Of a stretch of DNA of 64,000 bases, positions 8,785 to 62,629 are shown in pieces (within the stretch, counting starts at the first letter, position 1; each line of letters starts with the position of its first letter). The notes under the pieces are model-generated. The model saw nothing but the letters and a program-made list of their open reading frames with translations, had not been told where the DNA came from and searched no databases. The position numbers were made by a program, and so were the translations under genes. The DNA is from Mobula hypostoma (lineage: Eukaryota), in contig NC_086108.1 of the NCBI RefSeq assembly GCF_963921235.1, positions 49,230,001 to 49,294,000 on the forward strand. Direction: 5' to 3'.

Positions 8785-10340
8785 TATTGGATATTTGAAA
8801 TAAAAATACTGGAAATCCTTGTCAGATCAGACAGTATCTGAGAGAGTAAAAATGAGTTAGTGTTAGAGGTTAATGATCTTCTACCAGAATTGGTCAGTTC
8901 TGACCCATGTACAATAAGCTGTTTATATGAAATGGTTGAGCAAACCTGAGGGTTGCAGTGTTTGGAGAGAAGATGAGGTGCTGTACTTTGAGCTTGTGTT
9001 GAAAATTGTATTGGAAGCCAGAGACCTTGTGCGGGAGAGAAGTGATGAGCAACTAGAATCTCAAGGTCAGCCTTCTGAACTGGCTGCAGAATAATCATCC
9101 AGTCTACATTTTGTTCCCCATTGTGGAGGAGATCACCTCTTGAGCATCAGATGGAATTCACTAGTTTGGAATTACTCCTTCACCTGGAAACTCTGTTTAG
9201 GTTACTGGATGGTTGAAAGACATGAAGTAAAAGAGCAAACATGAGGAAATCTGCAGATGTTGGAATTTCAAGCAGCACACATAGAAGTTGCTAGTGAACG
9301 CAGCTGGCCAGGCAGCATCTCTAGGAAGAAGTATAGTCGACATTTCGGGCCGAGACCCTTCGTCAGGCTGTGCCTCCAACCTGATGGCATGAACATTGAC
9401 TTCTCTAACTTCCGTTAATGCCCCACCTCCCCCTCGTACCCCATCCGTTGTTTATTTATTTATTATTGTGCGTGCAGGTGTGTGTGTGTATATATATATT
9501 ATTCTTTTTCTCTCTCTCCTTTTTCTCCCTCTGTCCCCTCCCCCCCACCCCCCCCCGCTATACTCCTTGCCCATCTTCTGGGTTCCCTCTCCCCCTTTCT
9601 TGCTCCGTAGGGCTCCCGTCCCATGATCCTCTCATATCCCTTTTGCCAATCAACTGTCCAGCTGTTGGCTCCACCCTCCCCCTCCTGTCTTCTCCTATCA
9701 TTTCGGATCTCCCCCTCCCCCTCCCCCTTTCAAATCTCTTACTAACTCTTCCTTCAGTTAGTCCTGACGAAGGATCTCGGCCTGAAACGTCAACTGTACC
9801 TCTTCCTGGAGATGCTGCCTGGCCTGCTGCGTTCAGCAGCAACTTTTATGTGTGTTGCTTAAGTAAAAGAGCAAATGCATTTACACAGGAAAATGCTCTG
9901 AGAGGTGGAGTGGTTGATGGAAATGTAAGAGTTAACTAGGGAGTCACTGAGGGAATGTTCCCTTGGAAATGCTGAAGTGGAAGAAGAGTGGAAGATATGT
10001 TTGGTGAATGAATCCCTTTGAAATGTGCATAAATCGAAGGATAATCTGTTGAATGTGGAGGTTGGTTGGGTGAAGGTGAGGTCAGCGGATCTTTCTTCCT
10101 GTCCTGACCGGGAAGAGACGAGGGTAAGAACGGACGAGCAGGAAATTGAACAAATGCATTTGAGAACCTGACATCTGTGGTTGTGAGACAAAGATATCTC
10201 AGAAGCATCACGGAAAATAAGCAGATTTAAAGCAAGCAGGGAAGCTGGGAAAATGGGATGGATCCTTTTGGGAGCAGCGGAAGAGCAGTTAAGGTAACTG
10301 GGGGGGCCTGAGGGTTTTTAGTGGTTTCTATTCTATGTTG
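8785..10340 (-). mobile_element. Old PLE, interrupted by a younger PLE palindrome
   Basis: ORF 9859-10191 (FQRDSFTKHIF..SAFPREHSLSDSLV) is homologous to the PLE ORF at 24460-24759. Confidence 0.7.
9240..9860. mobile_element. Inverted-repeat PLE insertion
   Basis: Left arm 9240-9367 is the reverse complement of the right end; flanking direct repeat aagtaaaagagcaaa at 9225-9239 and 9861-9875. Confidence 0.9.
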
Positions 10341-14238: not shown

Positions 14239-14684
14239 TTGGCTACTTCGTCCGTAAGCTTTTATGTTATTAAACAAATCATGTCTAACAGACAGTGAAA
14301 AATGTTTCACACTACTATTGGCCATTGTAAATGATGACAGTGATGCAAAGAGCAGCTGTACTGAGTTCCACTAATATCCCTCAGCAGGCTATTCATGTAT
14401 GAGTCACCAGCATAAGGCAAGAAGTTGGGTTGACTGTACCCCATACTTCAGCCTCTTTCAACTAGGTTGGTAGCTGTGGATCTAATCTATGATAGTAAAA
14501 TGTTATCCTGGAGAGCAGGCCTCCTCGATTATGGGGAAACAATATATTTTTATCACAGTTTAACCTCATTGTATAATTGCAGTTTTGGTCTGTAATTTTA
14601 TTTTATGTTTGAACCTTGATTATTTTTATAAATGACTTTGTAGATCAGTCACTCAGCTATTGATTTTGGTAGGTAATGGTTCAT

Positions 14685-15826
14685 CCACTTCTCCTCCATT
14701 TCCCGGACATCCAAGCTCACCCCATCTTCCTGCCGCCTTAACAGGGATAGAGTTCCTCTCATCTTCACCTACCAACCCGTGAACCTCCACATTCAACACA
14801 TCACTTCCACCATCTTCAATGGGACCCTACCACCAAACACAACTTTTACTTACCCCCCCCCACCACTCTCCACTTTCCACAGGGATCACTCCCTCCATGA
14901 TTCCCTTGTCCATTCATTCCTCCCCCACCAATCTCCCCCGTCACTTATCCCTGCAAGCCACAGATGTGCAGCACTTGCCCTTTCACTTCTTCCCTCACTT
15001 CCATTCGGGGCCCTAAACAGTCCTTCCAGGTGAATCAGCACTGCACCTGTGAATTTGTTGGGACTGTCTACTGCAGTTTCAGTCCCCATTCCCATTCTGA
15101 CACCTTGGTTGATGGCCTTCTCTTCTGCCATGAGAGGCCACTCTCAAGTTGAAGAAGCAACATCTTTATATACTTTATACTTTATTGTCGCCAAACAATT
15201 GATACTAGAGTGTACAATCATCACAGCGATATTTGATTCTGCGCTTCGCGCTCCCTGGAGTACAAATTGATAGTAAATATTAAAAATTTAAATTAGAAAT
15301 CATAAATAGAAAATAGAAAAGGGAAAGTAAGGTAGTGCAAAAAAAATCTTGTACTCTTGTCTAGATGGCCTCCAGCCTAATGGCATGAACATCAATTTCT
15401 CCAACTTTTGGTATTTTTCCCCCTTCTCTCTTCATTCCCCCATTCTGGACTCTTGCCTCTTCTCAGCTGCCTATCACCCCCTGGTGCCCCTCCTCCTTCC
15501 CTTCGATGATCTACTCCCCTCTGTATAAGATTCCTTCTCCAGCCCTTTGCGTTCCACTTACTTACCACTGCTTTCTTACTTCATACCCACCCTCCCCCAT
15601 CCACCTGGCTGCCACCACCTAGCACCTTCTACCTTGTCCTCTTTTTTTTCCCTTCCCCCGCCGCCTTATTCTGACATCTTCCCCTTCCTTTCCAATCCTG
15701 ACGAAGGGTTGCGGCCCAAAACGTCGTCTATTTATTCATTTCCATAAATGCTGCCTGACCTGCTAAGATCCCTCAGCATTTTGTGTGTGTTCTGGATTTC
15801 CAGCAGCAACAGGATCTCTTGTGTTT
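14685..15826 (+). mobile_element. 5'-truncated PLE (RT-EN linker, degraded GIY-YIG, terminal repeat)
   Basis: STFHRDHSLHDSLVHS and CSTCPFTSSLTSIRGPKQSFQV motifs; hammerhead-like CTGACGA..cccAAAACGTC at ~15698-15725. Confidence 0.85.
15167..15345 (-). mobile_element. Short LINE 3'-end insertion with (ATAAAGT)n tail
   Basis: Interrupts the PLE; atctt duplicated at 15162-15166 and 15346-15350. Confidence 0.6.
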
Positions 15827-18054: not shown

Positions 18055-18522
18055 CATAAGAGAGGAACAGAATTAGGTCCTTCGGCCCATCTGCTCTGCC
18101 CTGCCATTCAATCATGGCTGATTTATTATCCCTCTCAACCCCATTCTCTTGTCTTCTCCTCACAACATTTGATGCTGTTATTAATCAAGAACTATTCAAC
18201 CTCAGCTTTAAATATACCCAGCGACTTGGCTCCCATAGCCATCTATGGCAGTGAACTCCATAGATTCACGAACCTCTGGCTAAACAAATTCCTCGTCTCT
18301 GCAACACTCTCCAGATGCTGGAGGAACTCAGCAGGCCAGATAGCATCTGTGGAAAAGAGTCTAGTCTCTGTTTCTGGCCGAGATATCCCCTCTGTTCTAA
18401 AGGGATATCCTTGTATTCTGAGACTGTGCCCTCTGGTCCTGAACTCCTTCTCTATAGGAAACATCCTCTCAGCAACACTCTATGAAGGCCTTTCAGTATT
18501 CAATCAGTTTCAGTGAGATCCC
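18055..18522 (-). mobile_element. CR1 3' end containing a ~85 bp PLE-end insertion (18301-18385)
   Basis: ORF 18243-18464: RTRGHSLRI..PFRTE [insert] RNLFSQRFVNLWSSLP. Confidence 0.8.
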
Positions 18523-18609
18523 TGAATAGTCGAACAATTGAGAGGAAAATATTTGACTCCCAAGGAATGCAGTGTTAACTTAATTGAGGAACAGAACATG
18601 GATATTCAA

Positions 18610-18874
18610 GCAACACACATCAAAGTTGCTGGTGAACGCAGCAGGCCAGGCAGCATCTCTAGGAAGAGTTACAGTCGACGTTTCGGGCCGAGACCCTTCG
18701 TCAGGGCAAGATTTCTCTTACTAGCTCTTCCTTCAGTTAGGCCTGTCGAAGGGTCTCGGCCCGAAACGTCGACTGTACGTCTTCCTAGAGATGCTGCCTG
18801 GCCTGCTGCGTTCACCAGCAACTTTGATGTGTGTTGCTTGAATTTCCAGCATCTGCAGAATTCCTCGTGTTTAC
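18610..18874. mobile_element. Mini inverted-repeat PLE insertion
   Basis: Arm 18605-18705 is the reverse complement of 18742-18843; atattcaa at 18602-18609 and 18875-18882. Confidence 0.85.
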
Positions 18875-19100
18875 ATATTCAAAGAACTCTTATTTGAGAA
18901 CATTTTAATTCCACATCCCATTCCCATTCTGATATGTCTATCCACAGCCTCCTCTACTGTCAAGATGAAGCCACACTCAGGTTGGAGGAACAACACCTTA
19001 TATTCCGTCTGGGTAGCCTCCAACCTGATGGCATGAACATTGACTTCTCTAACTTCCGTTAATGCCTCTCGTACCCTATCCGTTATTTATTTATTTTATA

Positions 19101-19145
<45 letters not shown>

Positions 19146-19351
19146 TCTCCTTTTTCTCCCTCTGTCCCTCTCACTATACTCCTTGTCCATCCTCTGGGCT
19201 TCACCCCTTCCCCATTTCTTTCTCCCTAGGCCTCCCATCCCATGATCCTCTCATCTCCCTTTTGCCAATCAACTGTCCAGTGCTTGACTCCATCCCTCCC
19301 CCTCCTGTCTTCTCCTATCATTTTGGATCTCCCCCTCCCCCTCCCACTTTC

Positions 19352-19958
19352 TTTTTCTTTTTAAATCTTTTTATTGATAAGTATACAAAAAGGTAAGCCA
19401 TATAGGCACTAATACACTGTTAGAATATAATAAAATTACAGAAGATATTAATACAAAAAAAATACTACAATGTAATTTAAACATAACGTACCAAGGTAAC
19501 ATAATAGTATACTAATTTTTATATATATATCAATAGAGAAAAGGAAAAAAAAACCCCAAAAAAACCCACCGTGCAACTAACTAAAAGCAAAGCAAAGCAA
19601 TGGGCTAACTTGAAACCAAACAGAGTTAAAAAACTTAAAATCACGTCCTCAATCCCGACCTCCATTAAAAACAGTAAAAAAAAACAAGAAGGGTATATAT
19701 TACATTAAATGAAAATATTGAATAAAAGATCTCCAGGTCTGTTCAAATTTAAATGAGGAGTCATAAAGATTGCTTCTAATTTTCTCCAAATTCAAGCATA
19801 ATATCGTCTGAGAGAACCAAAAAAAGGTAGATGGAGCATTGAGCTCTTTCCAGTGTTGTAAGATACATCTTTTCGCCACTAAAGTAAGAAATGCAATCAT
19901 TCTACGGGCTGAAGGGGAAAGATTACTGGAAATTTTAGGTAGTCCAAAGATAGCAGTA
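19352..19958 (-). mobile_element. 5'-truncated L1-clade LINE
   Basis: ORF2 C-terminus (AKRCILQHWK..P..W..LEKIR..FEQTW), polyA tail, TSD cccactttc at 19343-19351 and 19959-19967, TTTC/AAA target. Confidence 0.9.
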
Positions 19959-19995
19959 CCCACTTTCAAATCTCTTACTAGCTCTTCTTTCAGTT

Positions 19996-20031
19996 AGTCC
20001 TGACGAAGGGTCTCGGCCTGAAACGTCGACT
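19996..20031 (+). ncRNA. Minimal type-I hammerhead ribozyme motif
   Basis: AGTC-CTGACGA-AGG(GTCTCGG)CCT-GAAA-CG-TC^-GACT: stem I, core, stem II, palindromic ACGT in place of stem III. Confidence 0.8.
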
Positions 20032-20882
20032 GTACCTCTTCCTAGAGATGCTGCCTGGCCTGCTGCGTTCACCTGCAACTTTGATGTGCGTTGCTTGAAA
20101 TTCCAGCATCTGCAGATTTCCTTGTGTTTGAGAAATTCATTTGGTTTAAGTGATGAAAGAGTGAATGTGGATTTGCAAAGGATACAAAATTTTTATGCCA
20201 AATTAGCATCTATATTAGAGAGAGACTACTGACAGTAGGTGAGAAGTATCCTTGGATCTTTTTTCAAACTCAAATTACAGAGATAAAAGTACAAGCATTC
20301 ACATTATGCATCGTACCGCAACTGTCAAGAAATGAATTCCATAGTTGGAGTTGCTTGTTTTTGAACGTAGGTCAAGATTCTCATGAAGTTCTGTTTACAG
20401 TGTTCATCTGACTTCTATTTCTTTTCTCCAATGAACTACATATTGTCTGTCCGGTTCTGACCCATTTTGGCCATTTTTGTCCTGTCACAGCTGGACATTT
20501 GGCTTCCACGTCACACATTATGTAACAATCTAGTCATTGTTCTTGAGCCAAGTGGATAGAGAGGGACATGCAGTTGAATGCTTCTGACTGTTCAGACAGG
20601 AATTTCATTCACCACATGGGTTGCATGATCAAATCTCATCACTTGGCTGAGACTGTGGCTTTGAGTATCTCGTAGTTATCTCTTGTTGCAAAAGTAACAG
20701 CCTGTTCTTTACCTGCTTTTGAGGTCTTGAATGCCATTGGAGATGTCTGAGAGTGCTCCCGTTGTTCCTTATCTCACTTTAAGCAGATAGCCATTTTTCA
20801 AAGAATTAGGCCTTTGAGTCTGTTAGTAAAGTGAGTTAACCTCCCAATTTATGGCTGCTGTTTAGTAAAACAAATCCGAGTG

Positions 20883-23644: not shown

Positions 23645-24766
23645 TCAAGAGAAAATCTGCAGGTGCTGGAAATCTACGCAACACACACAACATGTGGGAG
23701 GAACTCAAAAGGCCAGTTAGTGTCTATGGAAATGAGTACAGTCGACATTTTGGGCCAAAACCCCTCAACAGGACTGGAGGGAAAAAAAAGAAGAAGAGTA
23801 GAGTTAAAAGGTGTGGGAAGGGAGGGGAAGCACATGGTGACAGGTGAAACTGGGAGGGGGAGGGGTGAAGTAAAGAGCTGGGAAGTTGATTGGTGAAAGA
23901 GATGCAGAACTGGAGAAGAGGAGTCTGGAGAGGACAGAAGACCATGGAAGAAAGAAAAGGAGAGGAGCACCAGAAGGGGGGGATGGGCAGGCAAGGAGAT
24001 AAGGTGATGGGGAATGATGAAGGGGGATGGAGGCATCACCGGAAGTTCACGAAATTAGTCTTCATGCCATTAGGTTGGAGGTTACCCGGACAGAATATAA
24101 GGTGTTGTTCCTCCAACCTGAGTGTGGCCTCATCATAACAGCAGAGGAGGCCATGGGTAGACACATGGGAATGGGAAGTGGAATTAAAATGGATGGCCAG
24201 TGGGAGATCTTTTTCTGGCGGATGGAGTGTAGGGGCTTGGTGAAGCGATCTCCCAGTTTACGTTGGGCCTCACCGATATACGGGAGGGCACACCGGGAGC
24301 ACTGGGCACAGTACGTGACCCCAACAGAGTCCCAGGTGAAGTGTTGCCTCACTTGGAAAGACTGTTTGTGACCCTGAATGGATAAGTACCAGAAGGGGCT
24401 CTTCCCCACCCCCCCCCAACTTACTGCTTTCCGCAGGAATCACTCCCTACCCGACTCCCTTGTCCATTTGTCTCTCCTCGCTGATAATCACGTACCATCC
24501 CACCAGCCTCTACGCCCAGCACATAATTCTCCACAACTATCGGCATCTCCAATGGGATCCCACCACCAAGCATATCTTTCCCTCCCCTCCACTTTCTGCT
24601 TTCCACAGTTATTGCTCCCTGCGCGACTCCCTTGTCCATTCGTCCCTCCCCACTGATCTCCCTCCTGGCACTTACCCTTGCAAGTGGAACAAGTGCTACA
24701 CCTGCCCTAACACCTCCTCCCTCACTACCATTCAGGGCCTCAAACAGTCTTCCAGGTGAGGCAACA
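23645..24766. mobile_element. PLE with inverted 5' segment; GIY-YIG endonuclease remnant
   Basis: Minus ORF 24062-24409 GVTYCAQCSRCALPYIGEAQRKLGDRF (GIY-YIG); plus ORF 24460-24759 TYHPTS..LQWDPTTKHIFPSPPLSAF..GTYPCKWNKCYTCP. Confidence 0.9.
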
Positions 24767-25177
24767 ATTTTTGTCTCCTCTTCCATGGTGTCAGTTTATC
24801 CAAGCTGCTTCCTTTTTGAGTGCGTTAGTAAAAATCAGCACAGTAAGTAGTCCTGCCAGCATAGTAGTTTTCAGGTCTTGCTCTTTTGAAGATTTGTATA
24901 CATGGTTGTAATTGTGACTTTGATATAATACCACACATCCTTTTTTCTGAAACTGAATTACATGCACAATTGGGTGCAGCTGGCGTGACATAAAATCTGT
25001 TTAAATAATAGTGATTTTTGTTCTTGGTTGTAACTGAGAAGGTGTAGGGAGTTTGCTTATGAACCTGACATGGGAAAAGGCCATTTCCCTTCCACTACCT
25101 CCCACCCCCAGAATCTTGCAACATTTCTTTCTCCTACCTTTTAACTCCTCTTTGATTATCTAACTATATATGTGTGG

Positions 25178-26702: not shown

Positions 26703-27353
26703 GATCGAAAGGGAACTGTTTTTTTAAAGAGAAGCAACTTGCCATTTTTGTTAGTCTCTAGATCTATTTTCAGACATGATAAATCTTGTTAGTATATGGA
26801 TAATGAAGTTAACAAGTAATTGCTTTAAACCATTCATTGAATTTGGCACTCTAAACAATACCAAATTCAAATTTGTAGGAACATATCATGTCTTTTTGTT
26901 TGAACATTGAATCTAGCTGTAATTATCTCTTGCTTTTACACACCTTATTGCTTTTGATTTCATGATGGAAGTTGGCTTGGCACTAAAATTGTGATAATAG
27001 CTTGGTATAATTTGAGTGGAAAAATACCTTGGAGATGCAATTCAGTCATTTGCATTTATTTAGATTCTTTAAACTTATCGTTTTCATGTCATCATTTTCA
27101 CTGTTTGATTTACTCTTTATAATTCAAGGATTTGATCAGATATTTAGATAGAAGCTCTTAATTCACCTGAGAAATTAAATTCAAGGAGGATTTTGCAACA
27201 TAAGTTAGTTTATTTAAGTATGATTTCGACAGCCGTGGAAATCTAAAATTGTTTACACAAACAGGAATTCTGCAGATGCTGGAAATTCAAGCAAAACACA
27301 TCAAAGTTGCTGGTGAACGCAGCAGGCCAGGCAGCATCTGTAGGATGAGGTGC

Positions 27354-27389
27354 AGTCGACGTTTCAGGCCGAGACCCTTCGTCAGAACT
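27354..27389 (-). ncRNA. Minimal hammerhead ribozyme motif
   Basis: Minus strand: AGTT-CTGACGA-AGG..CCT-GAAA-CGTC-GACT (one G.U pair in stem I). Confidence 0.75.
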
Positions 27390-27748
27390 AACTGAAGGAA
27401 GAGTGAGTAAGGGATTTGAAAGTTGGAGGGGGAGGGGGAGATCCAAAATGATAGGAGAAGACAGGAGTGGGAGGGATAGAGCCAAGAGCTGGACAGGTGA
27501 TAGGCAAAAGGGGATACGAGAGGATCATGGGACAGGAGGTTCGGGAAGAAAGACAAGGGGGGGGGGAACCCAGAGGATGGGCAAGAGGTATATTCAGAGG
27601 GACTGTCCCATGATCCTCTCGTATCCCCTTTTGCCTATCACCTGTCCAGCTCTTGGCTCTATCCCTCCCCCTCCTGTCTTCTCCTATCATTTTGGATCTC
27701 CCCCTCCCCCTCCAACTTTCAAATCCCTTACTCACTCTTCCTTCAGTT

Positions 27749-27784
27749 AGTCCTGACGAAGGGTCTCGGCCTGAAACGTCGACT
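27749..27784 (+). ncRNA. Minimal hammerhead ribozyme motif
   Basis: Identical to 19996-20031. Confidence 0.8.
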
Positions 27785-28049
27785 GCACCTCTTCCTACAG
27801 ATGCTGCCTGGCCTGCTGCGTTCACCAGCAACTTTGATGTGTATTGTTTACACAAAGATTGGCAAGGCTAATCTGACAATTGAAAATCCCAAAACTGGAC
27901 GTTGTTGGCAAGGATAGTGAGAGTTTGAAACTGTGGAAAGCAGAGCTGAGATATGCCGCTGTGATAATCTAATTGAATGTGGAAATAGGCTTGAATGTAT
28001 GAAGTTATCAAACTGACATTAAAAAATAGAAAACTGCAAAAGACAGGAA

Positions 28050-28270: not shown

Positions 28271-28717
28271 GAACTGAAATCTCTTCAGTTAATATGTTCA
28301 TGGAAGATCATGGCAGAACAGTGATGCTTTACTTTGGGGATTTTAGTGATGATATGGTATGTTTTAGTGATATTCGGAATAAATTTGTAAACCACAAATG
28401 CTATCTTGCTGGTCTTGATACCTGTATCTATACTGAGGTTATCTTAAAGGAATTAAATTTCACAGAATTTGCTAGTGTGTTCAGTGTCATGGTACAATAG
28501 CTATCCTTTGAATCATTGGGGATGTGTTATTAATTTTGTTTAGAGCCAATGTTAAAAGATGGAAATCAATTTGATGTAAGCTTTGATGTAGTGACGTTCC
28601 CCCCTTTATTTTAGCTCTGGCTTACTATCTGGTGTTTCTGAGAAACTTAATTTGGTAGCATCGGACTTCTAATAAAGTTTTCTTAAATAGATTTAACATA
28701 GTAAGATGCATATAACT

Positions 28718-29903
28718 CAGCAACACACACAAAATGCTGGTGGAACGCAGCAGGCCAGGCAGCATCTATAGGAAGAAGTACAGTCGACGTTTTGGGTCAA
28801 GACCCTTCATCAGGACTAATGGAAAAAAGAGATAGTAAGAGATTTGAGAGGGGGAGGGGGAGACCCAAAATGGTAGGAGAAGACAGGAGGGGGAGGGATG
28901 AAGCCAAGAGCTGGGAAGTTGATTGGCAAAAGGGATACAAGGCTGGAGAAGGGGGAGCATCATGGAACGGAAGGCCTTGGAAGAAAGAAAGGGGGAGGGG
29001 AGCACCAGAGGAAGATGGAGAACAGGCAAGGAGTTATTGTGAAAGTGAAAGAGAGAAATAAATAAATAAATAATAAATTAGGGATGGGGTAAGAAGGGGA
29101 GGAGGGGCATTAACGAAAGTTAGAGAAGTCAATGTTCATGCCATCATGTTGGAGGCTACCCAGACGGAATATAAGGAACATGTTCCTCCAACCTGAGTGT
29201 GGCTTCATCATGACAGTAGAGGAGGCCATCGATTGACATGTGGGAATGGGACGTGGAATTAATATGTGTGGCCACTGGGAGATCCTGCTTCCTCTGGCAG
29301 ACAGAGCGTAGGTATTCAGCGAAGCGGTCTCCCATTCTGATATGTCAGTCCATGGCCTGCTGTACTGTCGTGATGAAGCCACGCTCAGGTTGGAGGAACA
29401 ACACCTTATATTCTGTCTGGGTAGCCTCCAACCTGATGGCATGAACATTGATTTCTCTAACTTCCATTAATGCCCCTTCTTACCCCACCCTTATTTATTT
29501 ATTTATTTATTCTTTCTTTCTTTCTTTCTCTCTTTCCCTCTCTCAATAACTCCTTGCCTGTTCTCCATCTTCCTCTGGTGGTCCCCTCCCCATTTCTTTC
29601 TTCCAATGCCTTCCACCCCATGATACTCCCCCTTCTCCAGCCTTGTATCCCTTTTGCCAATCAACTTCCCAGCTGTTGGCTTCATCCCTCCCCCTCCTGT
29701 CTTCTCCTGTCATTTTGGGTCTCCCCCTCCCCCTCCCACTTTCAAATCTTTTACTATCTCTTTTTTCCATTAGTCCTGATGAAGGGTCTTGACCCAAAAC
29801 GTCAACTGTACTTCTTCCTATAGGTGCTGCCTGGCTTGCTGTGTTCCACTAGCATTTTGTATGTGTTGCTTGAATTTCCAGCATCTGCAGATTTTCTCGC
29901 GTT
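28718..29903. mobile_element. Long PLE palindrome (~530 bp arms)
   Basis: 28719-29245 inverted against 29331-29868; TSD tgcatataact at 28707-28717 and 29904-29914. Confidence 0.93.
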
Positions 29904-30030
29904 TGCATATAACTAAGATTTTTTCCTATAATATTTGTTGTAGCACTTTAAGTTTGTTTACCAATGATGAGGAATCACCATGAGTTATCATCTTGACTCA
30001 GATGTAGTTCAGCTGGGGTATTAGATAATA

Positions 30031-30398: not shown

Positions 30399-31750
30399 GA
30401 TCCCTGAGGCACACCACTGGTCAACGACCTCCATGCAGAATATGACCCGTCTTTGCCTTCTGTGGGCAAGCCAGTTCTGGATCCACAGAGCAATATCCCC
30501 TTGGATCCCATGCCTCCTTACTTTCTCAATAAGCCTTGCATGGGGTACCTTGCAAATGCCTTGCTGAAATCCATAAACACTACATCTACTGCTCTATCTT
30601 CATCAATGTGTTTAGTCACATCCTCAAAAAATTCAATCAGGCTCGTAAGGCACGACCTGCCTTTCGCAAAGCCATGCTGACTATTCTTAATCATATTATG
30701 CCTCTCCAAATGTTCATAAATCCTGCCTCTCAGGATCTTTTTTATCAGCTTACCAACCACTGAAGTAAGGCGCACTGGTCTATAATTTCCTGGGCTATCT
30801 CTACTCCCTTTCTTGAATAAGGGAACAACATCTGCAACTCTCCAATGCTCCAGAACCTCTCCCATCCCCATTGATGATGCAAAGATCATCGCCAGAGGCT
30901 CAGCAATTTCCTCCTTCGCCTCCCACAGTAGCCTTTGGTACATCTTGTCCGGTCCCGGTGACTTATCCAATTTGATGCTTTCCAAAAGCTCCTGCACATC
31001 CTCTTTCTTAATATCTACATGCTCAAGCTTTTCAGTCCGCTGTAAGTCATCCCTACAATTGCCAAGATCCTTTTGCGTCATGAATTCTGAAGCAAAGTAC
31101 TCATTGAGTAACACACATCAAAGTTGCTGGTGAACGCAGCAGGCCAGGCAGCATCTCTAGGAAGAGGTACAGTCAGCAACTTTGATGTGTGTTGCTTGAA
31201 TTTCCAGCATCTGCAGATTTCCTCGTGTTTACTTATTAAGTACCTCTGCTATCTCCTCTGTTTCCATACACACTATTCCAGTGTCACACCTGATTGGTCT
31301 TATTCTCTCACATCTTATCCTGTTGCTCTTCACGTACTTGTAGAACGCCTTGGGGTTTTCCTTAATCCTGTCTGCCAAGCCCTTCTCATGGCCCCTTCTG
31401 GCTGTCCTAATTTCTTCCTTAAGCTTCTTCCTGCTAGCCTTATAATCTTCTAGATCTCTATCAGTACCTAGTTTTTTGAACCTTTTGTAAGCTCTTCTTC
31501 TTGACTAGATTTACAACAGCCTTTGTACACCACAGTTCCTGTATCCTACCATTCTTTCCTTGTCTCATTGGAACGCACCTGTGCAGAACTCCACACAAAT
31601 ATCCCCTGAACATTTGCCACATTTCTTCCGTACAGTTGCCTGAGAACATCTGTTCCTAATTTATGCCTCCAAGTTCCTGCCTGATAGCCTCGTACTTCTG
31701 CTTACTCCAATTAAATGCTTTCCTAACTTGTCTGTTCCTGTCCCTCTCCA
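30399..31750 (-). mobile_element. CR1 LINE RT N-terminal region
   Basis: ORF 30518-31114: KSPGPD..PLFKKGSRDSPGNYRPV..SQHGFAKGRSCLTSL..DFSKAF. Confidence 0.93.
31111..31229. mobile_element. ~120 bp PLE-end palindrome lacking the ribozyme, inside CR1
   Basis: Flanked by tactcattgagta / tacttattaagta (31098-31110, 31230-31242). Confidence 0.85.
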
Positions 31751-39862: not shown

Positions 39863-42817
39863 TTCTAACTGGCTGCATCACCATCTCGTATGGGAGGCGG
39901 GGTTGCTACTGCACAGGATTGAAATAGGCTGCAGAGAGTTGTAAACTTAGCCAGCTCCGTCATGGGCACTCGCCTCTGTGCTGTCCAGGATATCTTTAAG
40001 GACTGATGCTTCAAAAAGGTGGCATCCATCTTTAAGGACCCCCATCACCTAGGACATGCCCTGTTCTCATTGTTACCATCAGGAGGGTGGTGCAGAAGCC
40101 TGAAGGCATACACTCAAGGAATCAGAAATAGCTTCTCCCCTCTGCCATTATTTACTGTGATTCAGTTTTTTCTTCTCTATTATTTACTGATTGTACTGAT
40201 GTGGCAAAGACAACGTATTGCAGAACTTATGCTGGTGATATTAAATCTGATTCTGAGTTTTGAGAGCATGATGGTATTGAATACTGAGCTGCAGTCGATA
40301 AAGAGCATTCTGATGTATGCACCTTTGCTGCCCCGATGTTCGAGGGTTGGGTGAAGAGCCATTGAAATTCTATCTGCTGTAGACCTGGAGATCCGGTAGG
40401 CAAATTAGAGCTGACCTAAGTCACTTCTCAGGCAGGAGTTGATTTGTTTCATCAGCAAACTCTTAAACCATTTCTTCAGAGTGGATGTAAGTGCTACTGG
40501 GCAACAGTCATTGAGTCAGGTCACCACGTTCTTCTTGGGTACCGGTTTAATTGATGCCTGCTTGAAGCAGGTGGCTACCCCACACCACCGAAGCTAGAGG
40601 TTAAAGATCTCAATGAACACTCCAGCCAGTTGATCAGCACAGGTCTCTTGTACTTGGCCAGGTGGCCCATCTGGGCCGGATGCTTTTCGTGGGTTTACTC
40701 TCCTGAAGGTTGCTAGCATGTTGGCTTCAGACACTGAAATCACAGGAACACTGGGGATGTAGGAGTTTTTGATAGTTCCTTCATGTTTTGACAAAGTGAG
40801 CATAGAAAGCATTGAGCAGATCTGGCAGCAAAGCCCTGTTGTCACCTACGTTATTTCATTTAACTTTATAAGAGGTGATGATTGTATTCAAGCCCTGCTA
40901 CAATTGTCGAGCACGCTTTGTTGTTTCAAGTTTGGTCCGGAATTGCCACTTCGCCCCTGAGATGACTTTCTGGAGATCGTACCTGGATCTCTTGTAACTT
41001 CCATGGTTACCAGACTTGAATGCCTCTGATCTGGCTCTCAGCAGATTGTGGATCTCACTGTTCATCCAGGGCTTCTGACTGGGGAAGAATGAATGACTTT
41101 GTGGGAACACTCTCTTGTATATAGCTGTTTTAATGAAGTCCATTATAACCATGGTGTATTCATTCCGATCCATAGATGAGTCCTTGAACACAGCCCAATC
41201 CATTGACTTGAAGCAGTCCCATTGCCGCTTGTGTGCTTCCTGTGACTATCTTTGTTATCCTAGTCTTTGGAGCTGTGCTCTTTAGCCTCTGCCTGTGTGC
41301 AGGTAGGAGAAGGACCGCCAAGAGATCCGATTTACTGAAATGCGATCTGGGCATGGTATGGTAAGCATTCCTTATCTTACTGTAACAGTGGTGTGTTGTG
41401 TTGGGACCTCTGATGCTACAGGTTGCATGCTGTTGGTGGTTGGGCAGGATTTTCTTCAAACAAATCTGGTTGAAGACTATGATTTGAAATGTATTGAGTG
41501 TGCTGTTTCTTGTATGGACGTGCAATAACGCGAGCGCTTGATTACATTCGGCCACTGGTGGTATTTAAACTCCGCTGAGGATCACGGGTGAGAATTCTCT
41601 GGGCAAGTAGAATGGACGACATTTGACCATTAGGTGTTCTAGGCCGGGGGAGCAGAGTTTGATAAAACCGCCGCATCAGAGCACCACTGAGAGTTCAACG
41701 TGAAACACACACCTCTACCTTTTGCCTTTTCCGAATGTGCAGTGTAGATTGTAGCAATGCTGCTGATTGGGTTTTGTAGAATGGTTGGGATTTTATATTG
41801 AATTGATTATGTTTTGGCTGCTGTCCTGGTAAACTCCACAGGTTGCTCCATTCTATTTATAGTTTCGAGTCCTGGGTGGTTGCAGTTGGCATTGTTGACT
41901 TTTCTAATATTATGATTTTATAACTGCATTTACAAGTCCAGTAAGTAAATATTGTATGAAATGTATGAAATTATTTCAGTGTATGTTTGTTATTTTCCCC
42001 ATCATTGCACCTTGAGTGTTTTTGAATAGTTTCCAAAAGGTAAAGCTTAAATTTTGTTTGAAAGCCCATTTCCCATTGTTCCATTTTCATACTTGTGCAT
42101 TGCAGCATGGTTATAACAGTATATTTGTGTTTTGTCATAGTTATAAATTTAGAAAATGTGATAGACACAACATGTACAGGTTAGAAGACATTCTGATAAA
42201 AATCAACGGACTAACGTGAATATTTTAAACCTAGTTCATAATGGCTCCTGCTCTTTTCTGTCATATAATGTGCTTTCTTTTTTGCTTATCTATTTAGTGC
42301 AAGAATTTTTGAAAGTGTGGAATTACAATTCTTTATCACTTTATGGATCACTGCTACTGCACATTCTGTTTAGTCTGCTTGTTATCATAATTATTGTTGC
42401 ATGTATTGTCAAGACAGGCATAACTTTTTAAAATTAATTTATATTTTTGTGTTTTGAAGTTTTGAGATTTTAAAGTTCTTCAGAAGTATAACTTAACTAT
42501 TTTTATGTAGAGGTGCAGTTCCCATCAGGCAAATTATCCAACATTGCAAAACATTGCATCCTTTTCATCTGCATGAACCAGGCAGTGCTGTTAAAATTTA
42601 ATGCATCTGATGAAAATAAATACAATTATAGGTTGTAAGATATGTCCTTTTGGTGTATCCAAAGGGGAAGACTGCACTGTGACTCTAAAATTAGTGTACT
42701 TGAAGAAATGCCACTGGCATGGCATTGGCAAAGGCATAACCCCCTGGGCAGAGAATAGAGGAATGCATGTTTGAAGTGAGAGCAAAACACAAGATTGATC
42801 TAAAAGCAATACTGAAT

Positions 42818-42976
42818 AACACTCACAAAATGTTGGAGGAGCTCAGCAGGTCAGGCAACATCTATGGAGAGGAATAAAGAGCTGACGTTTTGGGCTGAGA
42901 CCCTTCACACTGGCCCAAAACATTGGCTTTTTATTCCTCTCCATAGATGCTGCCAGAGCTGCTGAGTTCCTACAAC

Positions 42977-43015
<39 letters not shown>

Positions 43016-43052
43016 CACTGGATTTCTAGCATCTGTGGAAACACTGGTGTTT
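42818..43052. mobile_element. PLE mini-palindrome with expanded (TG)n
   Basis: Inverted ctcagc..catctatggagaggaataaa arms; taaaagca at 42801-42808 and 43054-43061. Confidence 0.75.
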
Positions 43053-43501
43053 ATAAAAGCATCACAGTCCTGCTTGTGCTTAATCTGTGAATAATATTTA
43101 TTAATAGTCTAAGCTAGCGGCCAAGAATTAGAGGAGACAAATTCAAATTGATTATCAATATATGTATTTGTATATGAATTGATTCAGATTTGCTTAATGT
43201 TATATACACCAGGTGCAAAGGAGGAGGTCATTATTTTCAGCCTTATGGTTTTGTAGAATTTCTCAAATGGACTCGATATGTGTTGTCTGCAGATTCAATT
43301 ATGGCATTAAAAAGAAGTTTGAATAGATATTTGAAGTGCAGTATTTGTGGGAACATGAGGGGAAAGTAAGAATTGAGACCAACTGGATTGCTGTCCAAAG
43401 AGTACATATTTAACAGAACAAATAGCTTCTTGTGTTGTAGTGATTATGTTGCAATTATTTGTATTGCGCTACAGTAAAATAAGACCGTAAGATATTTAAA
43501 G

Positions 43502-53180: not shown

Positions 53181-55099
53181 CTGGATTGATTTGCAGGGCA
53201 ATTTCCTTATTGGCTCAATTTCACTCCAAAATGGTTGCTCGTACAATCTAATATGGATGAATTTGCTTTTACATGTAATTTGTGTACATTAGTGGGAGAT
53301 AATTGGTTTAAATCTTTAGACATGTGTACGTAGAGGTGGTTAAATAAATTCCATTACTATTGCCTTGCTCAATACAACTTTTAATAGTTCCAAGTTGCAA
53401 TAGAGAATTTTTCATATTGACATAACAAGGTAATAGCATAGAAATTGATCTGGATCTAATTCATTATCCTGCCCTAAATCATAACAAAAGGAATGTTTTA
53501 AAGCATTGAAGACCAGGTGTGGTGTATAGAGTTCCCTTTTGTTCCCTTGCATCTGTTTTTCAGTTCAACGTGTAATTTATTGTAATGTTTGCTGACTGCT
53601 TCATTTGTTAGTACACTGTGTAGGGCCACTGAGTTCTGCTGTTTCTTGTATATTGTCCCAAATCTCATTGGGGTTCTTGGAAGTAGGATGTTTCGGATGG
53701 AGTGGGGATGGCAAAAATCATCTACCTGACTGATACAATTGACTGTTTTAAAAACAATCTTGTGGCCAGGCAAGAGTGTTTATGTTTGACTGCATTGTTC
53801 TTGGTGAGAAGTAATGAGTCAGGTTGTGTAGTGTTTGGCAAATCTTTAAAATAAAGAAACATTTAGATTTTGATTCATTGTATCATTGTGAAGCTGCTAT
53901 TTGGTGCTGGACCTCGCAGATGTCTATCTTTCTCAAACAATTCTTATTTATCAAGAATTATTATAAGTCATTACCAATCAGATAAACTTCAAAAATACAA
54001 CCTAATGAAAATTTGGTGCTTTGAAGTGCTCACTGGTTAGTTGGGCCAGTTGTTTGCCAAGCAGCATACTCCCTTGAACCTAATGGATTCATGGCAAACA
54101 CCAGTCCGATCCTTCCAGGACTGACCATACAAGTGACCTCCACATAGCTAAGTACGTAGCTCCATCAAACCATTAAATTTAACTGAATTTTTCTTTCTGT
54201 CCAGTTACATTGCATCTGTGACTTTATTGAAACGTGCTGTAAATTGTGAGAATATCGTGAAAGTGACATGGAAGAAACTGCAGAAGTAACTTTGTTTAAA
54301 AAAAAATCACTGCTGGAAAAGTTTCTTGTTTTTTGCTTGCTTTGCAGCCTTACAGTTCCTGCCATTATCTACTTTTTTCCTCACACTCCAATGTTTTCTT
54401 CATTCTCTAATTGTGTACTTGTTTGAGCAATTCCAATTATAACAGTTTTCTTGTTATTCACCCTCCTGTTAATTGGAATTGTGATGTGGGAGATGTTGAT
54501 GTATCTTTTGGAATATTCCATTGACAAAAACTTCAAAGTTTAAACTAAACTGCTACTCTGAAAAGAATGTTTTTTTCCAACCAGGCTGTCATTATAGAAT
54601 CAGGACACAAACGAAGTCCATTAACCTATCAGGTCTGTAATGATTTAAAAAAAAGAGCTACCACATCTAATTCTTCCCAGCGCTGTGTTCAAATCCAGTA
54701 GGTCATAGCTCTTCAAAAACACATCTGTACGTATAGAGTCATTATCACAAAGCAGGCCTTTCAGCTGACCAGATCCTCACCAACCCTCAAGCATCCATTT
54801 ATACCAATCACATTTTCTTCTTCTATTCCCAATTAACATCCCCAGATTTTACTACTCATCTACATGCCATGGGTATTTCAGTGGCCAATAATCCACCAGT
54901 CCAAGCACCCTCTGGTGAGTGATTCTTGTCTCTACCACCGCTTTGTATATTCAGTTTCAAATCCCTAGCTCTAAGCGAGTGAAAAATGTTTTCCTTATCT
55001 TCCCTGTACTCCTTCTATCAGTTTCTTAAATTCTGTGGTCCTGGGGTTTTGGACCCATTGGCTAAATAAAGGAAATAGGACCCTTCTCTGTTTTATCAC

Positions 55100-55257
55100 A
55101 AAAAGAGGAGAAAATCTCTGCAGATGCTGGAAATCCAAGCAACACACACACAAAATACTGGAGGAACTCAGCAGCATCTCAACCCAAAACATCGACTGTA
55201 CTGTTTTCCATAGTTGCTGCCTGGCCTGCTGATTTCCTCCAGCATTTTCTGTGTGTT
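55100..55257. mobile_element. PLE mini-palindrome
   Basis: Inverted acacaaaatactggaggaactcagcag arms; ccttctctgtttt at 55082-55094 and 55258-55270. Confidence 0.75.
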
Positions 55258-55579
55258 CCTTCTCTGTTTTTCCTGTTTCATCATTATTTTATACACCCCA
55301 ATTATATTTCACCACTACTACTCTCATCGCACACAGGAGAACTATAGTTGATCCAAATTTTCTTCAGAACTATTTTTTTCTCAGTGCTGGCATCATGTTG
55401 GATCTCTCTTCAGCCTTACCAGTGCAATCACATCTTTCCTATCATGCTGTGACCAGATGTTTATGCACTGTTTGAAACTCACCATAAATTACCGTACAGA
55501 GAAAAAGCCTTTTGACCTACCTCATTGGCCAATCCTATGCTAATTTACTTTAGTTGGAGAAATTAGTTGGAGGGTGGTA

Positions 55580-58220: not shown

Positions 58221-58428
58221 CTGGAGAAAATCTACAGATGCTGGACGTCCAAGCAACACACACAAAATGCTGGAGGAGCTCAGCATGGTCTTGGCCCGAA
58301 ACATCGACTGTTAACTTTTTTTCCATTGATGATGCCTGGTCTGCTGAATTCCTCCAGTATTTTGTGTGTGTTGCTTGGATTTCCAGCATTTGCAGATTTT
58401 CTCTTTAGCATTTTGTGTGTATTGCCTG
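58221..58428. mobile_element. PLE mini-palindrome
   Basis: gagaaaatctacagatgctgg..cacacaaaatgctggagga inverted against 58350-58404. Confidence 0.8.
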
Positions 58429-59539
58429 AAAATTTTCTTGCCTTCATGGCAACATTTAGTATTTTTTTTGAGATTTTTTAAAGATCGGATGTCCTTGTAA
58501 TCAGTGCAGCAAAAATGGAGCAGTTGGGATCTTTCCAGGACCTACACCTTTTAAATAAATTATTCTATTTGTAAATCCATAATTCTGTTTTTAAAATATT
58601 TCAGGAAAAATTGTATGTGATTGAGGATTAATGCTATACACAGCATGCCTAGTGCACCATAAAGGATGAAGATACTTGAATTGATGGGGAAAAAAACTAA
58701 AATATTTTGACTGTTGCACTGGCATTAAACTTGAAATTGAAATTAAACATTTTTTAATGTCAATCTTTTTGTCAGGAACTATTTTATAATGCAACTATGT
58801 TCCAAGTTAGTGTTGTTTTGGCAATTTTCACCTATTATTTTCCACAGAAACTATGCATGTTAATCTGTTATTGGGTAGAAATGTACTTCTGGAGCCTATC
58901 CTAAGCACGTGTAGAATATGCACAAAAATGTTTAGTTCTGAAAGGTCACTTAAATGTGCTAAAGTGTCTCATTGAGGGCTAATTTGCAATAATTCAGGAA
59001 CTGGATCCATGTTCATGTAATGAAAAGCCTTATATTTTTCTCCCAATCATTCTAACAAATGCCTGATATTACCACCCATTCTTTCCCAGCTAAAACGATC
59101 AACATATAGACATTCAAAAAATATTGTCAGTTATTGAAATAATGTTTTTTAAAATGTGTTCTACAAAAATATAATTAAGTTGATCGAACTAAATAAGTGA
59201 TATATATATTTTTAGAATAGTCGACTGAAAAGTGAATTGTCCCAATTAAGTTGTTTACTATAATTTCTGTACTAGGTGTTCCTTCCAAAAAGATTTGCTA
59301 ATGTTTTCCGTAGTAATGTTTTTCACAGCTGGCGGTGTAGTGTTTATTTCAATAAATTGCAAAACTACACAGCTCCCTTGTGTACTGAAACAAAACGTCT
59401 GTTGATTTGTTGACGGACTTGTGCATTTGAAATGGAAAATTTCAAAAGAAAGTGACATCTTTTCTTTTGCTTCTTTGATCCTGTTCAAAGGAACAATGTC
59501 CTGTGATAGTTAAGATCCTTATTTGATTTATAAATTTTT

Positions 59540-61785: not shown

Positions 61786-62629
61786 CTCTACTGTGCACAA
61801 GTCATAGGCACCCTGGCTATATACAGTGGTGCTAGAAAGTTTGTGAACCCTGTAGAATTTAATCTATTTCTGCATAAATACGACTTGAAATGTGATCAAA
61901 TCTTCACACGTCCTAAAACTAGATAAAGAAAACCCAATTAAACAAATAACATAAAAAACCTTGTACTTGTTTATTTATTTATTGAGAAAAATGATGCAAT
62001 ATTGCATATATTTGGTTGGAGAAAGTATGTGAACCTTTGCTTGTACAGCAATAACTTCAACCAAATGTTTCTGGTAACTGTTGATCAGTCCTGCACATCA
62101 GCTTGGAGGAATTTTAGGCAATTCCTCCTTATAAAACTGCTTCAACTCCGGAATGTTGGTGGGCTTCCTTCCATGAACTGCTTGCTTCACGTCCTTCCAC
62201 AACGTTTCTATGGGATTAAGATCAGGACTTTGACTCGGCCATTCCAAAATGTGAAATTTCTTCTGCTTTAACCATTCTTTGGTAGACTGACTTGAGTGTT
62301 TAGGGCCATTGTCTTGCTGCATGATCCACTTTCTCTTGAGCTTCAATTCACAGATGGATACCCTGACATTTTCCTGTAGAATTTGCTGGTACAAGTCAGA
62401 ATTTATAATTCCATCAATGATAGCAAACCATCCTGGTCCCGAGGCAGCAAAGCAGGCTCAAACCATGGCACTACCACCACCACGTTTCACAAATGGGTTG
62501 AGATTCTTATGCTGGAATGCATCTGATTACATTTTAGGTCACATTTATGCTGAAATAGAGAAAATTCTAAAGGGGTCACAAACTTTCTAGCACCACTGTA
62601 TATGTGCCTAAAACTTTTGCACAGTACTC
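61786..62629. mobile_element. Tiny TA-flanked MITE (TIR ~CAGTACTGTGCAAAAGTCTTAGGCAC) split by Tc1
   Basis: tactgtgcacaagtcataggcac ... gtgcctaaaacttttgcacagtact. Confidence 0.75.
61824..62598 (-). mobile_element. Tc1 (DD34E) transposon, internally deleted
   Basis: Perfect 23 bp TIR CAGTGGTGCTAGAAAGTTTGTGA, TA TSD; ORF 62098-62394 QDNGPKH..WPSQSPDLNPIE with 34 residues between D and E. Confidence 0.95.

Follow-up and report, generated by a model that had tools for sequence, protein, structure and literature searches.

Penelope-like elements (PLEs) are known to leave insertions of a peculiar layout. In a rotifer, an inverted pLTR completes the insert, a 9-bp target-site duplication (TSD) surrounds it, a 31-bp tail is found on one inverted pLTR, and the arrangement was checked against an empty site (PMC3846280). 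An overview of PLEs gives the same layout of inverted truncated copy, tail and TSD (PMC8557442), Penelope of D. virilis has 34-bp repeats and variable inverted ends (PMC2377424), and such peculiarities are listed as known for PLEs (PMC8969392). Poseidon of Anolis carolinensis (PAc) is an anole PLE whose protein, in vitro, cuts both strands, extends them and uses two internal start sites of reverse transcription that bound the tail; a dimer was predicted (PMC11167929). In that system internal initiation was unaffected by ribozyme mutants, no target homology was needed, and the start site was the same for both strands (PMC11167929). For L1, twin priming and a postulated dual priming have been defined (PMC2837659).

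We analysed a 64-kb window (the whole stretch of DNA under study, 64,000 nucleotides) carrying many such insertions. They resemble the published endonuclease-bearing (EN+) PLEs (rotifer Pen2a, PMC3846280; PMC8557442; D. virilis, PMC2377424) in the head-to-head inverted truncated copy, the 30–40 bp tail at one end, the single TSD round the whole unit (8–10 bp in those elements) and the C-terminal GIY-YIG domain. In contrast to those elements as published, the units in the window are mostly tiny (119–1186 bp), are devoid of the RT region and are very abundant, their long/short pairing can be counted, and the linker appears to be of the Neptune/Nematis type. The likeness to PAc (PMC11167929) lies in two start points about one tail length apart, downstream of the hammerhead, in the cutting and extension of both strands that the insertions suggest, and in 3' ends for which the ribozyme seems unneeded. 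PAc differs, as that report describes it, in that the two sites are not tied to inverted insertions and that neither target homology nor a strand difference is seen; it also belongs to a different clade, and the element in the window ends GT-rich rather than AC-rich in the sense strand. Like L1 twin or dual priming (PMC2837659), the insertions suggest two primers from two target nicks, with inverted pieces inside one TSD and an end-joined centre. Twin-primed L1 pieces, however, come from stretches without overlap and vary in their second site (PMC2837659), whereas in the window one and the same 3' end is copied into both arms from two fixed sites, and poly(A) is absent. The non-overlapping pieces of a twin-primed inversion were not found here; only the unit at 23646–24769 comes near.

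A BLAST search with one arm revealed 24 arms bearing the terminal sequence in the window, 16 of them in eight inverted pairs and eight unpaired. All eight pairs are head-to-head and consist of 3'-terminal sequence of a Penelope-like element. In seven of the eight, one outer end is long, the other is 27–40 nt shorter (roughly 33), and one TSD pair encloses both arms; these seven have the layout of EN+ PLEs (inverted 5'-truncated copy, 30–40 bp tail at one end, variable TSD). The units other than the focal one are listed below, with inner ends counted from the long end.

9225..9875: palindrome with a 15-bp TSD; long arm 9237–9368 (minus strand), inner end at −130; short arm about 9373–9860 (plus strand)
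18602..18882: palindrome with an 8-bp TSD; short arm to 18705 (minus strand), inner end at −130; long arm 18714–18872 (plus strand)
28707..29914: palindrome with an 11-bp TSD; short arm 28719–29334 (minus strand); long arm 29330–29904 (plus strand)
31098..31242: 119-bp palindrome with a 13-bp TSD (11 of 13 positions match); short arm 31110–31174 (minus strand); long arm 31174–31230 (plus strand)
42801..43061: old palindrome, arms 80% alike; weak 8-bp candidate TSD; both inner ends within the hammerhead
55082..55270: old palindrome with a 13-bp TSD; long arm left, short arm right
58224..58430: eighth palindrome, the exception; both arms long, with a third, short piece at 58406–58430
24381–23646 (minus strand): long-ended copy with the GIY-YIG domain; whole unit 23646..24769
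24400–24769 (plus strand): inverted partner of that copy, an upstream ORF piece with the CX4CxxC linker; 43-nt overlap

The earlier note had described at least seven inverted-repeat insertions (9240, 18610, 27262, 28718, 31111, 42818 and 55100) of about 120 bp to 1.2 kb, flanked by direct repeats of 8–15 bp. All seven that it listed are present, with TSDs of 15, 8, 14, 11, 13, 8 and 13 bp, respectively, and 119–1186 bp between the repeats. When 30-nt stretches were paired at random 5000 times, the probability of a match was 0.012 for 8 bp or longer and 0.0006 for 11 bp or longer; the value for the 31111 repeat (13 bp with two mismatches) was 0.0025. The 8-bp repeat at 42818 is weak (p = 0.012) and does not adjoin the left arm, and 18610 shows two extra nucleotides at the long end. 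No direct repeat over 6 bp was found at 58224, and the TSD script returned none for 58224, 23646, 4612, 15697, 18313, 20885 and 56763; its scan left out 50216, and the 8-bp repeat of copy 20129 lies outside its search window. One arm had been said to reach the full terminus and the other to stop 30–45 nt short; the asymmetry is seen in all seven, with a measured gap of 27–40 nt. The common terminus CCTCGTGTTT is exact in two of the seven (18610, 31111) and varies by 1–3 nt in three (9240, 27262, 28718), but it is not universal, the remaining two (42818, 55100) carrying a different, older-subfamily end. Calling the end rule "fixed" was too strong: it is strong, not fixed, because 58224 has a long/long pair and the partner of 23646 comes from the ORF interior. 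Both arms of 28718 extend into the GIY-YIG C-terminus, 31111 lies inside a LINE RT gene, and the 23646–24769 unit contains an internal 85-nt duplication, its partner piece ending inside the ORF.

Several further pieces were observed in the window. The short third piece at 58406–58430 stands in tandem behind a long arm, and a similar joint, 27314 to 27260, is among the contig joints listed. An unpaired long-ended copy with an 8-bp TSD (18893–20134) begins about 30 nt past the 18610 palindrome and is interrupted by a 600-nt insertion (19352–19958). An unpaired short-ended piece with a possible 5-bp duplication (18296–18394) is inserted in an abundant repeat, within its 3' tail, and a decayed PLE endonuclease region (14640–15410) is broken by another repeat at about 15175–15345. 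The element at 61819–62603, with 83-nt inverted ends and apparently TA-flanked, is unrelated to PLEs; we take it to be probably a Tc1/mariner relic.

The assignment to Penelope-like elements in the earlier note was borne out by the homology of the C-terminal part to GIY-YIG endonucleases, the linker and the minimal hammerhead. The longer arms continue into the coding end of the element, and fragment 24206–24379 matches 327 proteins at E ≤ 0.001. Of the six homologues scanned, five carry GIY-YIG (E of 3e-4 to 2e-3, under the Pfam cut-off) and two, of 816–827 aa, carry RVT_1 and then GIY-YIG; it is through the homologues that the C-terminal GIY-YIG with two Cys between GIY and YIG, typical of EN+ PLEs, was found. 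In tblastn, the best-matching protein aligned at 64–77% with the endonuclease-coding pieces of the window, including both 28718 arms; in the Atlas, the first match scored 0.96, with GIY-YIG on 16% of the members. Direct Pfam scans of window fragments detected no GIY-YIG, and a word-index protein search returned none of six candidates. The RT core of the PLE family is absent from the 64-kb window, and the homologues suggest that RT belongs to the same ORF. The translation of 24395–24780 contains a CX4CxxC linker; a CX2-5CxxC linker before GIY-YIG characterises the Neptune and Nematis clades (PMC8557442), so the motif, by definition rather than by a tree, points to that type. A pattern scan for copies elsewhere gave none in viral contigs, none and later 107 loci in metagenomes, and four in genome contigs; these 111 loci were rejected as further copies, a single one aligning over at least 28 nt, as a 29-nt bacterial chance match.

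The focal palindrome comprises the following parts.

27248..27261 (plus strand): left TSD copy, 14 bp; the match of an organism B contig ends exactly at 27261
27259..27603 (minus strand): long-ended arm, 358 nt from the 3' end of the element, tail included
27259..27296 (minus strand): tail, running from the short to the long end point; loose contig ends peak at 27260/27263 and 27296
27354..27389 (minus strand): left-arm minimal hammerhead motif; predicted cut between 27358 and 27357
27536–27602: spacer, the partnerless part, carried by the long arm
27599..27609 (no strand): inner junction, an 11-nt mini-palindrome; 1 nt common to both arms
27603..27842 (plus strand): short-ended arm, about −285 to −40 from the long end
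27749..27784 (plus strand): right-arm minimal hammerhead motif; predicted cut between 27780 and 27781
27843..27856 (plus strand): right TSD copy, 14 bp

The 14-bp direct repeat that flanks this insertion (27248–27261 and 27843–27856) is exact, with a chance of 0.0004 among the 5000 random pairs. The arms (27289–27535 and 27603–27849) are complementary at 98% over 247 nt. They are 98.8% alike, versus 84–94% when compared with the young and intermediate long copies and 76% with the old one; gene conversion could homogenise arms.

The outer ends cluster at two points. In organism A, loose 3' ends of contigs peak at 27260, 27263 and 27296 (at least 202, 245 and 221 of 4256 partly aligned contigs), and in organism B at the same positions (143, 178 and 159 of 2798), as read from six entries per run among the matches listed; the contigs at these peaks carry long, unlike flanks. 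The resolution is about 10 nt, because 27263 and 27296 are private changes of the reference that clip alignments. Unpaired copies in the window use both ends, six of the eight being long and two short (18313, 20885). The long end is a narrow zone: at 27259–27263 the template seemingly continues for about 6 nt beyond the point where the end appears to lie, and the older subfamilies terminate a few bases further on.

Two defined RNA end points, possibly produced by ribozyme processing, had been proposed. The two points are there, although they are likely to be start sites of reverse transcription inside the RNA and not RNA ends, because they lie far from the cut and internal initiation is unaffected by ribozyme mutants in the anole system (PMC11167929). 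The outer ends sit 62–75 nt (short) and 102 nt (long) 3' of the predicted cut, a distance that rules out ribozyme cleavage as their source. Mixed long/short pairs make up seven of the eight, with p = 0.035 if both ends are used equally and independently and p = 0.006 if 75% are long, the share among unpaired copies. With eight pairs, the pairing of long with short ends looks coupled.

The terminal repeat contains a minimal hammerhead motif, for which self-cleavage is predicted. It spans −133 to −98 from the long end, with the predicted cut after −102, and matches the description of minimal hammerheads in PMC4209133, sharing with the known ones the core, the unpaired base before helix II, the G-C closing pair and the palindromic helix III stub. 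Helices I and II are 91% paired over 10 copies, compared with 16–59% when the motif was slid; the motif folds in copy 20129, not significantly, and the left arm of the focal palindrome has one private change, in helix I (27386). Over the 10 copies, the helices showed no compensatory (two-sided) changes and the pairing was not above that of column shuffles. An Rfam search at the gathering threshold gave 0 hammerhead matches, RNAalifold did not recover the motif, and single-sequence folds were no better than shuffles (z of 0.01 and 0.27). Because the folds were not above shuffles and RNAalifold missed the hammerhead, no conserved structure is claimed at the start sites. In Schistosoma, hammerhead motifs have been noted on opposite strands at distances of 100–700 bp. 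Taking retrozymes as a comparison class (10.64898/2026.07.22.740005), the pieces in the window differ from retrozyme arrays in being dispersed inverted 3' ends of an autonomous element, with cleavage predicted; the tandem head-to-tail non-coding repeats of a non-LTR retrozyme were not found, the copies being dispersed and inverted and running into the endonuclease ORF. In the young subfamily, hammerhead helix I is directly preceded by a word like a branch point, by a pyrimidine tract and by AG (9725–9760, 18714–18740, 27725–27752), with an overlapping word that is initiator-like. An intron in D. virilis ends at hammerhead helix I, and the young-subfamily arrangement resembles it (PMC4209133).

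If the ribozyme is linked to the palindromes at all, the link may lie at the inner (5') ends, which we regard as a lead. The 33-nt hammerhead holds the inner ends of 11 of the 24 arms (p = 0.0002) and of 7 of the 16 palindrome arms (p = 0.008), and no adjacent bin of 33 nt holds more than one inner end; with a single arm counted for each pair, p = 0.02. This accumulation was noticed after the fact, and arm 56763 is doubtful. Two arms begin at −130 (9240 long, 18610 short), and the inner end of the 31111 left arm coincides exactly with the predicted ribozyme cut (−101). Splicing was rejected as the source of the −130 ends because the upstream letters differ between copies. A loose-end peak at 27389 (217, 140, 173 and 7 contigs) was likewise not accepted as a sign that 5' ends lie at the ribozyme, because the consensus there matches older subfamilies that diverge at that place. 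Five of the 12 contig joints listed, of 92, break at 27385–27386; the private base at 27386 biases this count, which is only a lead.

The junctions carry further information. At six young long ends the TSD and the template overlap by 3, 0, 3, 1, 1 and 3 nt, 11 nt in total (p = 0.0003–0.006), or 17 nt if the template continuation seen in contigs is used. At five short ends the overlaps are 0, 6, 0, 0 and 1 nt, 7 nt in total (p = 0.008–0.05), a sum that rests on one 6-nt case. These counts, read by eye, exclude the three old pairs, and the targeting of AT-rich sites raises the number of A/T matches in them. At the inner junctions, about 5 nt are shared in 28718 and 1 nt in 27262 and 31111, and 4–8 extra bases are present in 9240 and 18610; mini-palindromes occur at 27599–27609 and near 18706–18719. 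The arms within pairs overlap by 24–520 nt, and the inner stretch without a partner is on the short arm in five of seven palindromes and on the long arm in two (bias p = 0.23).

That each palindrome arose from one integration event, as had been claimed, is supported by the single TSD pair, by a probable empty site and by host frames that are collinear at 9240 and 31111. Once 31111 and one TSD copy are removed, an open frame of 84 codons is left, continuous with the ORF that matches RVT_1. The 9240 palindrome interrupts a minus-strand PLE ORF, older and diverged, in its linker region, and the flanks of the palindrome (9169–9243, 9880–10317) match successive parts of a PLE protein. At the focal locus, a 1472-nt contig of organism B matches 26800–27261, to the last base of the left TSD, and continues with 887 letters off the arm; the right flank up to the next copy measures 862 nt, and the 887-letter run contains half of the sampled right-flank words. 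This contig fits an empty site, as judged from the match end, the length and the sampled words. The proposed check of TSDs at empty orthologous loci thus came out in favour at the focal locus, with the site deduced rather than read; it is also compatible with two insertions after the species split.

Taken together, these observations favour, in our judgement, a single integration in which both nicks prime their own cDNA from long and short start sites about 33 nt apart, a reading that we consider reasonably probable. The endonuclease would nick both strands 8–15 bp apart, and the staggered nicks would leave two 3' overhangs, as the TSD geometry suggests. Each overhang would prime reverse transcription, aided by 0–6 nt of pairing with the RNA, one cDNA beginning at the long start site and the other at the short one. 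Both cDNAs would halt early, often inside the hammerhead region, and would be end-joined with 0–5 nt of overlap or a few extra bases before repair fills in. The template would be used twice, because both arms copy the same stretch; most likely it would be one RNA or one protein–RNA complex, with each RT subunit at one start site. One RNA with two occupied sites would explain why long ends almost always come together with short ones and is most likely the best account of the pairing, two RNAs or a tandem transcript being the alternatives. Against double priming, the sample comprises eight pairs only, one of them is long/long, and 23646 is paired with an internal site; moreover, the arms of 9240 rank their partner only 6th and 9th of 23 by identity, and the anole system neither needed target homology nor differed between strands in its start site (PMC11167929).

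Fold-back or self-priming, in which antisense RNA or the first cDNA primes itself into a hairpin, staggered resolution leaves the tail and later central deletions appear as spacers, strikes us as unlikely, though it is the strongest of the rivals. Palindromes at inverted junctions led to the proposal of self-priming for Penelope in rotifers (PMC3846280), and the tail has been attributed to endonuclease resolution (PMC8557442). Fold-back yields identical arms and an obligatory asymmetry, and the two mini-palindromes at inner junctions agree with it. The spacer polarity, however, disfavours a simple fold-back of one polarity, since the short arm carries the spacer in five cases and the long arm in two, and this mixture requires secondary deletions. 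Such later central deletions are plausible, and deletion at palindrome centres could later randomise which arm keeps the spacer. Fold-back also has to contend with target/template overlap at both ends, with short-ended copies that have no partner (18313, 20885) and with the fact that both limits of the tail are RT start sites in vitro (PMC11167929). L1-style twin priming on one tandem transcript, with one nick priming the downstream repeat and the other the upstream, tail-bearing repeat, shares its steps with the double-priming account and differs only in template use; we hold it to be improbable, less so than the readings that follow. It needs neither displacement nor a second RNA, PLEs are transcribed from partial tandems (PMC11167929), and 23646–24769 resembles priming at an internal site. 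The further inward extension of the short arm in five of seven, which would suit it, is not significant, long arms of 56–575 nt would demand many upstream-repeat lengths, and no tandem source copy was seen in the 64-kb window.

Two independent insertions at one site, the second attracted by the first, or a post-insertion rearrangement, are very improbable. Arms are dense (about 24 per 64 kb), PLEs do enter PLEs (9240 lies in an older PLE ORF), and the 9240 arms are only 88% alike. Against this, TSDs are confined to one outer pair and absent from the inner junction, the orientation is always head-to-head, both arms of each pair come from one subfamily, the partner arm ranks first by identity for both arms of 27262 and 28718, and both arms appear jointly absent in organism B. 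Hardly credible is a MITE or fold-back DNA transposon family derived from PLE repeats and mobilised by a transposase. Terminal inverted repeats, TSDs and sizes down to 119 bp recall such a family, and the smallest products had been said to mimic MITEs. The likeness is superficial: equal termini, a fixed TSD length and a uniform size are not found, as the termini are unequal, the TSDs vary from 8 to 15 bp, the inner junction and length are private to each copy, and the arms are 5'-truncated pieces of an RT-endonuclease element.

The layout has been published before, as have the two sites of RT initiation behind the tail, and the reading of one event with two sites is largely right and largely published. 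The coupled long/short pairing, the target/template overlap and the pile-up of inner ends in the hammerhead were not found in our literature searches. A search by title or start of the abstract, with supplements and most subscription papers outside its scope, found no paper on coupled PLE ends, which may already have been noted in print, and a title search for Penelope and twin priming found none on PLE mechanism. The origin of the inverted structures of PLEs and the role of their hammerhead are stated as open (PMC8557442, PMC4209133, PMC3846280). This family is dense, with 24 arms in 64 kb and about 99,500 contigs of one run matching a 340-nt arm, and includes young species-specific events; end pairing, junction overlap and inner ends are therefore countable at scale, and such counts would separate double priming from fold-back. 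PLE mini-palindromes can also be mislabelled as MITEs. Tentatively, and with more doubt than attaches to double priming itself, obligately asymmetric double priming by an RT dimer on one RNA may combine with a hammerhead that sets the cDNA stops, through cleavage, structure or the RNA 5' end, to give ribozyme-bounded mini-palindromes. If true, obligate asymmetric double priming would replace the models of self-priming and resolution, and the palindromes would document in the genome that the ribozyme acts in vivo.
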